Shown: positions 37,883 through 42,241 of the stretch, piece by piece
How positions within the stretch are numbered: position 1 is the stretch's first letter
Layout of the letters: each line of letters begins with the position of its first letter
Virus record (IMG/VR): IMGVR_UViG_3300023035_000005
Span: 64,001-128,000 of that record
Length of the DNA stretch: 64,000 nucleotides
Source of the DNA: a virus
Reading direction: 5' to 3' (one strand)
Translations under genes and position numbers: made by a program
Notes under the pieces: model-generated
What the model saw: only the letters and a program-made list of their open reading frames with translations
What the model was told of the DNA's origin: nothing
Database searches by the model: none

Positions 37883-39212
37883 TTACTTCTTTTTAGTGAA
37901 TAAAATCTCTTCTACTCTTTTTTTTAAGTAACTATCTTGTTCATTAAAAATTCTTTTAACTACTTGTAAATCTGAATTTACTACTTGCTTTACTTTAGGG
38001 TCTCTATAAGCAACAGTTAGTCTTATATTTTCATGTACTTCTTTTTCAGCTAAATTAAGTTCTTTATTAAGTGAGTTTCTAAAAGCATTAGTTAGAGTAA
38101 AAAATTCTTTTAAACTAGCGTCAACACTACGACTTTCACTTAATCTTTCTACCTTAGAAAAATAATCGTTTTGTATTTCAGTTCTTTTTATTTCCATTTC
38201 TTCTAATTTTAATTTGACCTCAATAGGTAAATAAGTTTTATTTAGATCTATTCAAGTAGCTCGTCCACCATAAGACTTATTAAGGAAACTAGAATGAGTT
38301 TGAAGTAAGCCCAAAATCGCCCTTTGAACCTCAGGTTTATCTTCATAATAAAGATTAGCTTCACCTGCTTTTTTAAGCTTATCTGCTATACTAATATTTA
38401 GAGCTGCATATTCCTCCATAAATTCATTCATTTGTTTAATATAAGTTATAGTTGAAACATCCTCTGGGACCTGGACCTGGACCTGTATATTTGAGCTTGT
38501 ACTACTTTGCCCTGAATGTCCGCTAGCTTGGCCTCCGCTTCCCATACCTTCACCTGTCATACTAAGATTAGCAGGAATAATTGCTTTAACGTTACTGGGT
38601 AAAGAATCGGTAGGTCCAACTAAAGGTATACCTCATAGACTCTTGAAATCTCCTTTTAATTCAGATAATAAATAAGATATAGCCTCTTTAAAACCTAAAC
38701 GAGCGAAAGGTAAATGTAGACTTAAAATTAAAGAAGGTCAAGAAACTAGATTTTCAATCAGGTTAAAGTCAAATAAATAGTTAACACCTACTTTGAGAGT
38801 ATAGGTATATAAACCTATTAAAATTAAGGTAAATATATTAACACAATTCATCTTATTTTTTATTCTTATAGATAAATAGGCTCATAATTTACTTTGTAAA
38901 GGTAAACTTACAAAAGCGTGAGGCTTAGGTGGGCTACTTAACGCTCATTCTAAGGAAGGGTAACTTCTATTTAATAAGGCTTGTAATGTATCAGTATAAT
39001 ATTGAGGAGTCATTCAAGGATATCTACTTGCAGATTTTCCTTCTACTAATTGTGCATATACAATGTATAAGAATAATCAAGCAGCTATAACACTAACTAT
39101 AGATCCAAAACTACTTATCAAATTTCATCCCGCAAAAGCGTCAGGATAGTCACTAATTCTTCTAGGCATTCCTTGTAAACCTAAGAAATGTTGAGGGAAG
39201 AAAGTAAGATTA
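37883..39212 (-). CDS. cox1: Second copy of cox1 terminal exon fused in frame to a 335-aa unknown ORF
   Basis: [18 protein letters not shown]...SLPLQS continues without stop to TAA 37883. Confidence 0.82.
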
Positions 39213-39540
39213 CAAATAGTGTGGACTATATCTTAACCACTTAACAAGATCAATTTCCGCCTTCGGACAGAAGGATTAAAGGAAATATAGATATTTATTA
39301 AATAATTTCCTTCGTGTAGTCTCTGAGGATCCTACTTATAACGTGGCTCATTACTTTGGTTTCCTGCTGATTGTTCAAAATTATACATTTTTACTAGGAT
39401 TAAATAAAACTCTAGTAGTATAATTATCAGAAGTTCCCAGCATATAGAAGGATTGGTAGGGGCTAACTTTATTTCTGTTTAGTGCTTCGCCACAAATTGT
39501 ATAATTCAATCTTCTTCTATAAGAGCTACTCTTTCATCGT
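39213..39540 (-). mobile_element. Duplicate group I core and 3' splice site of cox1-1262 intron
   Basis: P, Q, R, S motifs and omega-G repeated 1449 nt downstream of the first set. Confidence 0.85.
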
Positions 39541-39689
39541 TTGCTCCTACGAAGTCAGGCATAAAAAAAAGCTACTTTTTTTATGCTGCCTTTAAAGAAT
39601 TTGTTTGTTTTTTTTTGTTTTTTTTATTAATAGTAGAAAAATTTAACTGTTTACTTGTTGTTTTACAAAACAATAATTAAAAGAGTCGG

Positions 39690-40042
39690 GTAGTGCTGGC
39701 TGACTTCGTAGCACTGACTAAGTATGGACTGACTTCGTAGGAGCCGAAAATAAATATATTTTCTTCCGAAGGACTACGTAGTCAGGACTCCTCCTTGGCC
39801 TGCCACTGCCTCCTACGAAGTCAGTCCTTCCGTAGGAGGAAGGAGGAGGCAGTCCTTCCGTAGGAGGAAGGACTGCCATACTTCGTTAGGAGAAGTGGGC
39901 AAGCGCAGCAGGCTCCAGCCTCCTACGAAGTCAGGACTGGCTAATAAAAAATATATTTTTTTATAAGCCCTTCGTAGGAGGAGTAGTCAGGCAGCTACTT
40001 TTTTTTATTTTATTTCATGAGCCCGCCTTCGGACGGCGCGCC
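39690..40042. repeat. GC-rich repeat cluster
   Basis: Same module family as 20000-20495. Confidence 0.85.
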
Positions 40043-40661
40043 CTAACATACATATGTAGCACATATATAACAACATCTCCCGCGTATAACTCAAATCTCT
40101 CTACCAGCTTCCAGGCAAGTAGGACATCTTTTTCCTGGTAGTGTACCTGAATAATATATCTCACTATCTGGATTATTAAGTAACTCACTGCCTGGATTAT
40201 TAAGTAACTCACTACCTAAATTATTAAGTAACTCAATATCTAAATTATTAAGTAACTCGGTACCTAAACCACCAATAATAAATGTTATTATTATTATTAA
40301 TAATAATAATAATAATAAAATAAAAATAAATTTAAGATTAGATTGTAAAGGTAAACTTACAAAAGCGTGAGGCTTAGGTGGGCTACTTAACGCTCATTCT
40401 AAGGAAGGGTAACTTCTATTTAATAAGGCTTGTAATGTATCAGTATAATATTGAGGAGTCATTCAAGGATATCTACTTGCAGATTTTCCTTCTACTAATT
40501 GTGCATATACAATGTATAAGAATAATCAAGCAGCTATAACACTAACTATAGATCCAAAACTACTTATCAAATTTCATCCCGCAAAAGCGTCAGGATAGTC
40601 ACTAATTCTTCTAGGCATTCCTTGTAAACCTAAGAAATGTTGAGGGAAGAAAGTAAGATTA
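40043..40661 (-). CDS. cox1: Cytochrome c oxidase subunit 1, terminal exon (first copy) with 98-aa extension
   Basis: [26 protein letters not shown]...SLPLQS then open to TAG 40043. Confidence 0.9.
40161..40256. repeat. 4 x 24-bp tandem repeat coding ELLNNxxx
   Basis: tcactatctggattattaagtaac and three variants. Confidence 0.92.
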
Positions 40662-42241
40662 CAAATAGTGTGGACTATATCTTAACCACTTAACAAGATC
40701 AATTTCCTCCTTTCGTGGCGCTGACGCTTTACACCGAGGACTAGCCCTGTGCTAGGCTCCTGCGGAGCGAAGCTCGGCAGAAGAATTAAAGGAAATATAG
40801 ATATTTATTAAATAATTTCCTTCGTGTAGTCTCTGAGGATCCTACTTATAACGTGGCTGGTTATTTTGGTTTCCTGCTGATTGTCTAAATATACTTAAGA
40901 TTTTTACTTATTTAATAAGTACTTAAGCCTTATGTGATTTTCCAGCATATAGAAGGATTGGAAGAGGCTAACTATACTATTTCTGTTTAGATTGAGATTG
41001 TATAATTCAATCCTCTCCAGTGCTACGAAGTCAGCCAGAGTTACTCATTCCTTAGTATTTATAATTTTTTTATAAAACTTCATCTTACTTTAAATTGTTG
41101 TTTAGCTGCATTAACAGAAGGGAAAATTAACTCTATATCTGTTTTAGTAAAACAGAAAACAGAATTACCTCCATGTTGCATTGATAATTTACCTTTTAAT
41201 CCTTTGCCTGTATGATTATTAGTTAAATAATAAATTTTTGGTGTAGCGAAGCTATGCCTGCCATACTTAGTTAGGAGAAGTGGGCCGTAGCGAAGCTAGC
41301 CACCACTGCGTGCGTGCGTGCGTGCGTGCGTGCGTGCGTGCGTGCGTGCGAAGCCGCCGCCGCCGCCGCCGCCGCCGCCGCAGCACTGCTGCTGCGAAGT
41401 CCTAATAAAAAAAAGACATTTTTTTTTATAAGCAGTCGCCCGAATATTATATACGTAAAGGGGTACGCGCAACCCAGAAGATTTTTAGCGCTCCTCCTGA
41501 CTTCTCCTCCTTCCTGCCTCCTACGGCAGGAGGACTGCCATACTTCGTTAGGCTACGAAGTCAGTCCTCCTGCCTGCCTCCTGCCGTAGGAGGCAGGAGT
41601 CCTGACTACGTAGGCAGCAGGAAGGAGGAGAAGGACCTGTTTCAGATGAAGTAACATTACCTAATTTAGGATGGTTTTCTTTATTTAATCTTGGTTTTAA
41701 TTCAATTATAGTATCAAGACTATGTTTAGAGCGGATCCTTCCTGCCTCCTACGGCAGGAGGACTGCCATACTTCGTTAGGAGGATGGAGCCCCAAATAAA
41801 TTACCTGCAACATTTAAAACATTATGTTTAGGTTTATATTTATCCAACCATTTTTGTTCTAAATTAAGACAAACTTTAGAATCATTTTTACAAAATTCAA
41901 AAATACCTAAAGAAAATTTATCTAAACCGTATTTTTTCATTGCTCTTATTATTACTATTTTGGAAAGTTTATCTGAATTAGTATAATAATAATAACTAAC
42001 CATTATTTTAGTTAAATTAAGACTACTACCAATATAAAATTCCTTAGTTATATTATTTATAAGTACATAAACACCCGCTTTTTTTCTTAACTCTTTATAT
42101 ATATTCTTTTTTTCTTTTAAAAAATTCAAAAAAAAAATCGCAAACTCATTAGATCCAGGCTCCGTGTTGAAAGGTTCACCTTTATTAGAGGATTTACTAT
42201 ACAATCTATTACTTATTTCAGAAATACTTCCCTTTTTTTTA
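40662..42241 (-). mobile_element. cox1 group I intron at ~1262 (IB-like) with GIY-YIG pseudogene
   Basis: Core at 40670-40960; KAGVYVL...FYIGSS ORF broken by GC repeats. Confidence 0.9.
41240..41790. repeat. GC-rich repeat cluster with (GCGT)n and (GCC)n
   Basis: Inserted in the GIY-YIG ORF. Confidence 0.9.

Follow-up and report, generated by a model that had tools for sequence, protein, structure and literature searches.

Duplications of the 3′ ends of mitochondrial genes are known and have usually been read as scars of endonuclease-driven insertion. In mitochondrial gene hybrids, a duplicated C-terminus is carried on a mobile open reading frame (ORF), and such structures have been described for atp6 of Allomyces macrogynus, for atp6, atp9, cox2, and nad3 of Glomus sp., for atp9 of Rhizopus, and for cox2 of Mortierella (PMC3630166). 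When the transcripts of Glomus atp6 and cox2 were analyzed by reverse transcription-polymerase chain reaction, the inserted upstream C-terminus was present and the native downstream C-terminus was absent (PMC3630166). In the mitochondrial DNA (mtDNA) of Phlebia radiata, atp6 and cox2 have alternative C-termini, and cob and nad6 are fused to C-terminal extensions (PMC4019555). Alternative splicing of group I introns is rare; single introns have been reported to use cryptic splice sites (5′ or 3′), and exon skipping between tandem group I introns was described for orf142 of phage Twort, for the Coxiella 23S rRNA, and for engineered Tetrahymena pairs (PMC10136302). In engineered tandems, the second ribozyme splices the already ligated product in a stepwise manner (PMC10136302). 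Here, we describe a cox1 locus in a stretch of 64,000 nucleotides from the IMG/VR record IMGVR_UViG_3300023035_000005 (this whole stretch is called the window in the following). At this locus, the last cox1 exon is present twice, and each copy is preceded by its own group I ribozyme core and followed by a different C-terminal tail. Our favored interpretation, to which we assign a probability of roughly 55%, is that the 3′ end of the gene was duplicated as in the gene hybrids. Exon copy 1 would end Cox1, and the displaced exon copy 2, probably kept identical by gene conversion, would head a conserved reading frame that we call orfX.

As in the gene hybrids, there are two copies of the 3′ part of the host gene, the first of which continues the gene in phase, and the presumed native one has been displaced to a position farther downstream. 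The inserted C-terminus of the Glomus cox2 hybrid is immediately preceded by a group I intron, as is also the case here. However, there are several differences. The gene hybrids carry an endonuclease gene between the copies, whereas here the passenger consists of a hydrophobic helix and a zinc ribbon. Moreover, a whole ribozyme core with its guide has been duplicated in the window, the displaced copy is a potential splice acceptor, and this copy is fused in frame to a conserved ORF of 335 amino acids (aa). The two copies are 100% identical, compared with 64–81% in the gene hybrids, and the inserted copy is not the more divergent one. With P. radiata, the window shares a large mitogenome of the basidiomycete type, a duplicated last coding segment, and genes that read on into extensions. 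In that fungus, however, endonuclease domains are located between the copies and the extensions were judged to be probably untranslated, whereas in the window both extensions are shared by several taxa in conserved form, and a separate ribozyme core precedes each copy.

A common feature with alternative splicing of group I introns is that one guide–donor pairing may be combined with more than one omega-G acceptor. Sellem and Belcour reportedly found in 1994 that alternate 3′ sites in Podospora mitochondrial introns express intron ORFs. In the known cases of alternative group I splicing, either a single core uses cryptic sites or a short exon lies between two complete introns. In contrast, the sequence of the present locus combines one donor with two cores, each of which is followed by a full alternative terminal exon. 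What differs here is the duplication of a complete acceptor module with its own guide, with conserved passengers behind both copies and no endonuclease gene. The locus may thus be considered a natural test of regulated or stochastic terminal-exon choice by group I ribozymes.

The window is AT-rich fungal mtDNA that is read with genetic code 4 (TGA = Trp). Its cox1 gene is located on the minus strand, as are all exons, ribozyme cores, tails, and neighboring elements described below, and it contains many group I introns with GIY-YIG or LAGLIDADG ORFs. The penultimate cox1 exon (42242..42443, start approximate) ends with ...AUAGGGGU at the single donor, the last U of which is at position 42242, and up to FWILFIGV its translation corresponds to the intronless cox1 of two related loci (L001 and L003). 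The duplicated unit comprises the 3′ part of the following group I intron, from the guide sequence to the omega-G, and the last cox1 exon. It appears as a direct repeat with a spacing of 1449 nucleotides (nt) (38889-39188 / 40338-40637), and the perfect repeat shared by the modules is 352 nt long. In a pairwise alignment, the copies agree at every position (100% identity) between a point about 30 nt 5′ of each acceptor and the CAA codon that encodes the Q of LPLQ. Over the adjoining 112 nt of intron sequence on the 5′ side, identity is 95%, and further 5′ the cores are only about 65–70% alike. Exon copy 1 (NLTFFPQ...SLPLQS, 40340..40661) and exon copy 2 (38891..39212) are identical as far as positions 40343 and 38894, respectively, and the last Ser codon is TCT in copy 1 and AGT in copy 2. 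Both exons start with UAAUCUU, at 40661 and 39212, and the corresponding introns end with a G at 40662 and 39213. The splice join FIGV|NLTFFPQ equals the uninterrupted cox1 of the relatives. When translated with code 4, the reading frame continues past LPLQS for 98 aa from copy 1 and for 335 aa from copy 2. Because of the 352-nt perfect repeat and of two full covariance-model matches, the duplication of this module is far beyond chance. An earlier note on this DNA had described the twofold occurrence of core, omega-G, and last exon at a distance of 1449 nt with acceptors at 40661 and 39212, exon copies that look identical up to LPLQ, and tails of 98 and 335 aa, and all these statements agree with the repeat search, the alignment, the Rfam matches, and the translation. 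No endonuclease ORF of the LAGLIDADG or GIY-YIG type was found between the copies, where we detected only tail 1, which belongs to no Pfam family, and a GC-rich spacer. The sole GIY-YIG remnant is located upstream of core 1.

Both ribozyme cores gave full-length matches to the Rfam family Intron_gpI (RF00028), at 41013-40651 with 60.5 bits and at 39505-39202 with 51.2 bits, and both scores exceed the gathering cut-off of 50 bits. Core 1 (40662..41013, omega-G at 40662) has a 5′ half that we call type A, and core 2 (39213..39505, omega-G at 39213) has a 5′ half of type B. The two cores share P3, P4, P7 with its AAGAUAUAGUCC strand, and a long P8 stem with compensatory changes. The differences lie in the P5 region, in a hairpin 5′ of the guide, and in the P8 loop, which in core 1 carries a 61-nt GC-rich insert. 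Candidate guides were identified by searching the intron and spacer strands for pairing with the 5′ exon end, with a G opposite the terminal U. Among several matches, two sit at homologous places just 5′ of P3. The guide of core 1 (GUUA-GCCUCU, 40972-40963) pairs with AGGGGU of the donor, and that of core 2 (GUUA-GCCCCUA, 39467-39457) pairs with UAGGGGU. In both guides, the GUUA element can pair with the exon start UAAU, which gives the same P10 of 4 base pairs (bp). Computation of the P1 duplexes yielded 6 bp and −7.2 kcal/mol for core 1 and 7 bp and −11.6 kcal/mol for core 2, and thus, the distal duplex is the stronger one. Taken together, each core shows the group I signatures of a U-ending 5′ exon paired to a guide G in P1, a P10, and a terminal G. 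The corresponding guides of two relatives are GCUCCUA (L011) and GCCCCU (L012).

The earlier note had also proposed a single 5′ splice site at 42242, and our data are in line with this statement, since no second donor fitting the distal guide is present between the copies; in particular, no internal donor for a smaller core 2 intron was found within tail 1 or the spacer. These pairings suggest that either core could use the single donor. Joining 42242 to 40661 would recreate UAGGGGU|UAAUCU, which is a predicted core 2 substrate. Since ligation to copy 1 would regenerate this substrate, core 2 could subsequently remove 40661-39213 as a 1449-nt intron.

Comparison with related introns indicated that core 1 shares 93% identity with the core of L012 and that the stretch of core 2 plus exon shares 85% identity with the intron-plus-exon sequence of L011. 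The 5′ half of core 2 (39358-39461) shares 88% identity with the core of the cox1 intron next upstream (43640-43743, minus strand); to this neighboring core it is nearer than to core 1. This similarity suggests exchange between intron cores within cox1. Because the differing core histories stand beside 100% identical exons, the data point to a recombination between diverged modules, followed by gene conversion, rather than to a simple recent copy.

Tail 1 (98 codons plus stop, 40043..40339) contains a strong transmembrane helix at residues 4–22, ELLNN repeats that are encoded by 24-nt tandem repeats, and a predicted C4 zinc ribbon (PGKRCPTC-x13-CxIC) at about 40144-40046 of the minus strand. 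The same tail is fused to the last cox1 exon in the proteins P0011 (99%), P0012 (locus L011), and P0013 (locus L012), and it was also found in L009 and L002. In addition, P0162 represents a cox1 3′ fragment that reads through FIGV|NLTFFPQ without an intron and carries the helix and the ribbon at its C-terminal end. In the alignment of the ribbons, PGKRCP, three of the four cysteines, the tryptophan, and the GR pair are invariant, and the second cysteine is present in every sequence that reaches this position. Ratios of non-synonymous to synonymous substitution rates (dN/dS) of the zinc ribbon varied between 0.17 and 0.77. Judged from this conservation, tail 1 is a real coding extension and a conserved part of the gene. 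An interpretation of tail 1 as simple read-through of repeats was rejected, since the tail is conserved in five other loci.

A profile search with the ribbon yielded 300 representatives at E ≤ 0.001, most of which are 45–100 aa long and carry the ribbon at the C-terminus. Tail 1 shares the family motif PGKRCPxC-x13-CxxC with conserved W and G-R/K at the protein terminus. Some members are fusions with mitochondrial proteins. Here, we found the C-terminus of cytochrome b followed by an extra helix and the ribbon (P0046, P0110, P0043), Cox2 with an N-terminal ribbon and helix (P0091), Cox1 followed directly by the ribbon (P0151), and N-terminal fragments of cox3 combined with the ribbon (P0157, P0057). 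In these fusions, a hydrophobic helix is usually located between the host part and the ribbon. Searches of Pfam and PDB with the ribbon gave only sub-threshold matches to generic zinc ribbons, and a word-based search with a 52-aa ribbon protein of the nuclear type gave no match. These findings indicate that tail 1 belongs to a hitherto undescribed zinc-ribbon module that, as judged from the fusions, has repeatedly been attached to mtDNA-encoded proteins. Tail 1 links Cox1 to a module that is also present on cytochrome b, Cox2, and Cox3 fragments, and this raises the question of what role a zinc ribbon plays on mtDNA-encoded subunits of the respiratory chain. The ribbon family extends over proteins P0014-P0162 and loci L013, L015-L017, L021, L022, and L024. 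Close copies that use TGG for Trp were found as small proteins on GC-rich, nuclear-like contigs, and because of these copies a transfer of the ribbon between compartments is suggested. The copy in L013 lies behind an apparent spliceosomal intron end (CTAAC...AG). In L022, the cox3 leader and the first cox3 codons are present in triplicate (29-193, 698-862, 1579-1743), and the ORFs that begin with these segments are a helix-plus-zinc-ribbon ORF, cox3, and an acidic, repeat-rich ORF. The passenger ORFs of L022 appear to borrow expression segments of the host gene.

The second tail, orfX (335 codons plus stop, 37883..38890), is in frame with exon copy 2 and has an in-frame ATG at 38851. When its 335-aa sequence was used as query, eight protein clusters with 64–100% identity were obtained. 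None of them has a Pfam domain, except for a COX1 match on one cox1-fused fragment, and searches with orfX in Pfam, in the ESM Atlas, and, with a profile, in PDB gave no match. The AlphaFold2 model of orfX is all-helical but of low confidence, with a mean predicted local distance difference test score of 49. In L001, a mitochondrial metagenome contig of 36.9 kb, and in L003, the cox1 frame runs through this position without an intron and stops shortly after LPLQS. Directly after it comes orfX, which lies in the +1 frame relative to cox1, and the two genes overlap at the end of cox1. This overlap junction is identical in six independent contigs. The overlapping frame extends over L001:6449-7474 and L003:1796-2770, the same junction is seen in L004-L008, and no ATG occurs for about 100 codons. 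In L002, orfX is free-standing and contains ATGs. Its position after cox1 is syntenic in L001, L002, L003, L009, and L010. Pairwise dN/dS values of orfX were 0.35–0.86, as compared with 0.05–0.2 for the cox1 exon. From its distribution, orfX is evidently a conserved gene.

In the window, a tRNA-Leu(UAA) gene (37666..37740) is located directly 3′ of orfX, and it is likely to be the 3′ processing point of the cox1 transcript. This region also matches the sequences after orfX in L002 and L003, both of which have a tRNA-Leu gene at this place. Since orfX follows cox1 in the relatives and tRNA-Leu comes next, copy 2 apparently keeps the ancestral neighborhood, of which orfX would be the ancestral cox1 neighbor. 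Between orfX and nad1, the relatives carry a chimeric ORF (L001:7722-8936; L002:1976-3403; L003:3031-3930), which consists of a copy of the nad1 N-terminus (MYYL...VAYVTVAERK...) followed by an unrelated K/E-rich sequence, and in the window no such ORF was found between orfX and nad1.

To compare the evolution of orfX in the window and in L009, lineage-specific changes were counted with L003 as outgroup. The L009 lineage showed 11 non-synonymous and 10 synonymous changes, which indicates purifying selection. In the window lineage, 39 non-synonymous and 6 synonymous changes have accumulated since the split from L009, and the frame is still open (window vs. L009, Fisher p = 0.005). These counts indicate relaxed constraint or diversifying selection on orfX in the window lineage, and relaxed constraint would fit a poor use of the distal module.

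In L009, the closest relative by orfX (synonymous distance dS 0.09), an exon copy without a ribozyme core comes immediately after the stop of tail 1. This copy sets in only with ...SSFG and is fused to orfX. We read this junction as a microhomology deletion of the spacer, of core 2, and of the exon start. In L002, cox1 is followed by tail 1, which is in frame but separated by two stops, then by a translated LPLHS stretch, and then by orfX. The LPLHS stretch may have been left over from the end of the exon; in BLAST, similarity between L002 and the window sets in 16 nt before this end. Thus, the order of tail 1 and orfX on one molecule is independently seen in L009 and L002. Because orfX persists in these two loci with the distal acceptor truncated or gone, this acceptor is dispensable there. 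Distances between orfX sequences group the loci as ((window, L009), L003) and (L001, L002), and the distribution of tail 1 on this grouping is patchy. This patchiness could be explained if tail 1 was lost through recombination between the directly repeated exons. In L011, the sequence aligns with the spacer of the window over only the first ~80 nt 3′ of tail 1 (BLAST match of 61 nt, window 39682-39622), and no convincing second ribozyme core was found after tail 1 before the contig ends.

On the basis of the anatomy of the locus, the guides, the conservation of the tails, and the layouts in the relatives, all of which were directly observed, we infer the order of events, the action of gene conversion, and the choice of the acceptor. 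Originally, cox1 would have been followed directly by orfX. A cassette consisting of the intron 3′ part, the exon, and the transmembrane-plus-zinc-ribbon tail, which may have arrived by insertion or recombination, would now be located upstream of the original cox1 end. The proximal module should be transcribed and folded first, and copy 1 would most likely complete the cox1 mRNA, so that a Cox1 with a zinc-ribbon extension would be formed, at least as a precursor. Copy 2 would have been displaced, with gene conversion probably keeping its exon identical to copy 1. It would constitute the 5′ end of the orfX frame, and translation of orfX may also begin at the ATG within this frame. Some splicing to copy 2, either direct or sequential, would be chemically possible, and we judge it to be a minor or non-essential path.

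Several observations weigh against this interpretation. Unlike in classic gene hybrids, an endonuclease gene was not found between the copies. Core 2 shows no signs of decay. All of its catalytic elements are identical to those of core 1, and the duplex between its guide and the donor is the more stable one (−11.6 vs. −7.2 kcal/mol). Exon copy 2 is in frame with orfX in the window, in L009, and in L010. The orfX frame of L001 and L003 overlaps the end of cox1 and lacks an ATG around its conserved start, and these two features hint at a dependence of orfX translation on cox1. The earlier note had proposed that the two terminal exons could be spliced in a mutually exclusive manner. The anatomy that this proposal requires is present, since each core has its own guide and the conserved catalytic elements. 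The comparative data, however, favor the cassette, because the distal acceptor is truncated or gone in L009 and L002 while orfX persists, and because orfX is free-standing or overlapping after cox1 where there is no duplication. The alternative that the earlier note had offered, a 3′ cassette that displaced the other copy, is therefore favored by the layouts of L009, L002, L001, and L003.

Genuine alternative terminal exons that are chosen by the ribozymes, with Cox1–zinc-ribbon and Cox1–orfX proteins or precursors both being made, are conceivable and have a sound chemical basis, but we consider them less likely. Either core might pair with the donor, or core 2 might re-splice the ligated mRNA and remove 40661-39213, and the duplication would serve the expression of two passenger ORFs without a 5′ leader of their own. 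This would be consistent with two complete cores that have their own guides, the same 4-bp P10, and one donor, with two acceptors that are compatible with the same donor–guide pairing, with the stronger distal guide, with two conserved in-frame tails, and with the lack of an ATG at the conserved orfX start in L001 and L003. The triplicated cox3 leader ahead of the passenger ORFs in L022 provides an analogy, and alternative or exon-skipping splicing of group I introns does exist, though it is rare (PMC10136302). However, L009 and L002 retain orfX without a usable distal acceptor, the window-lineage orfX evolves as if unconstrained (39 non-synonymous vs. 6 synonymous changes) and has its own ATG at 38851, and the proximal core is transcribed ~1.45 kb earlier. 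In L001 and L003, cox1 ends with a stop and orfX is in another frame, and therefore, a Cox1–orfX fusion is not generally required. If this scenario were true, one mitochondrial gene would yield two Cox1 fusions, with the choice of the terminal exon made by ribozymes, and duplication of an acceptor module would be a route of expression for passenger genes that lack their own leaders.

It appears improbable that copy 2 is the true cox1 end and that core 1, exon copy 1, and tail 1 are all located inside one 3029-nt intron, with tail 1 as an intronic passenger that is expressed only via occasional use of the proximal acceptor. Tail 1 is a cox1 fusion in several taxa and continues the frame without an intron in P0162, L009 and L002 have no usable distal acceptor, and the 335-aa extension that this reading would put on every Cox1 molecule is not conserved in the relatives. 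These data outweigh, in our opinion, the preserved ancestral synteny with orfX, tRNA-Leu, and nad1 and the best fit of the distal guide to the donor. Short reads can hardly resolve an exact repeat of 352 nt, and by reasoning, the other path through it gives a circle of exactly 1449 bp; in addition, the exact exon–orfX protein of the window occurs on one contig only (216,117 bp). An assembly artefact or a mixture, either of a one-module master genome and a 1449-bp loop-out circle or of two haplotypes, is nevertheless unlikely, since the order of tail 1 and orfX was independently found in L009 and L002, the spacer start after tail 1 is colinear in L011, and the differing core types do not fit a collapsed duplicate.

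The 5′ part of the group I intron (41021..42241) contains a decayed GIY-YIG ORF that continues the frame of the upstream exon. Pfam detected the GIY-YIG domain on this exon-fused ORF, which is split by GC-rich palindromic clusters. In the folded intron, this stretch would be looped out between the two strands of helix P1, which are provided by donor and guide. A mir-4436 match in the GC-rich palindromic part of the intron was discarded as spurious (30.8 bits vs. a gathering score of 74 bits). The spacer between the modules (39506..40042) consists of GC-rich palindromic clusters and A/T runs. Such clusters also occur within the intron, in the P8 loop of core 1, and 3′ of orfX, and families of the CCTCCTACG...AGGAGG type are found at 37437-37540, 39750-40040, 40700-40770, and 41270-41780.

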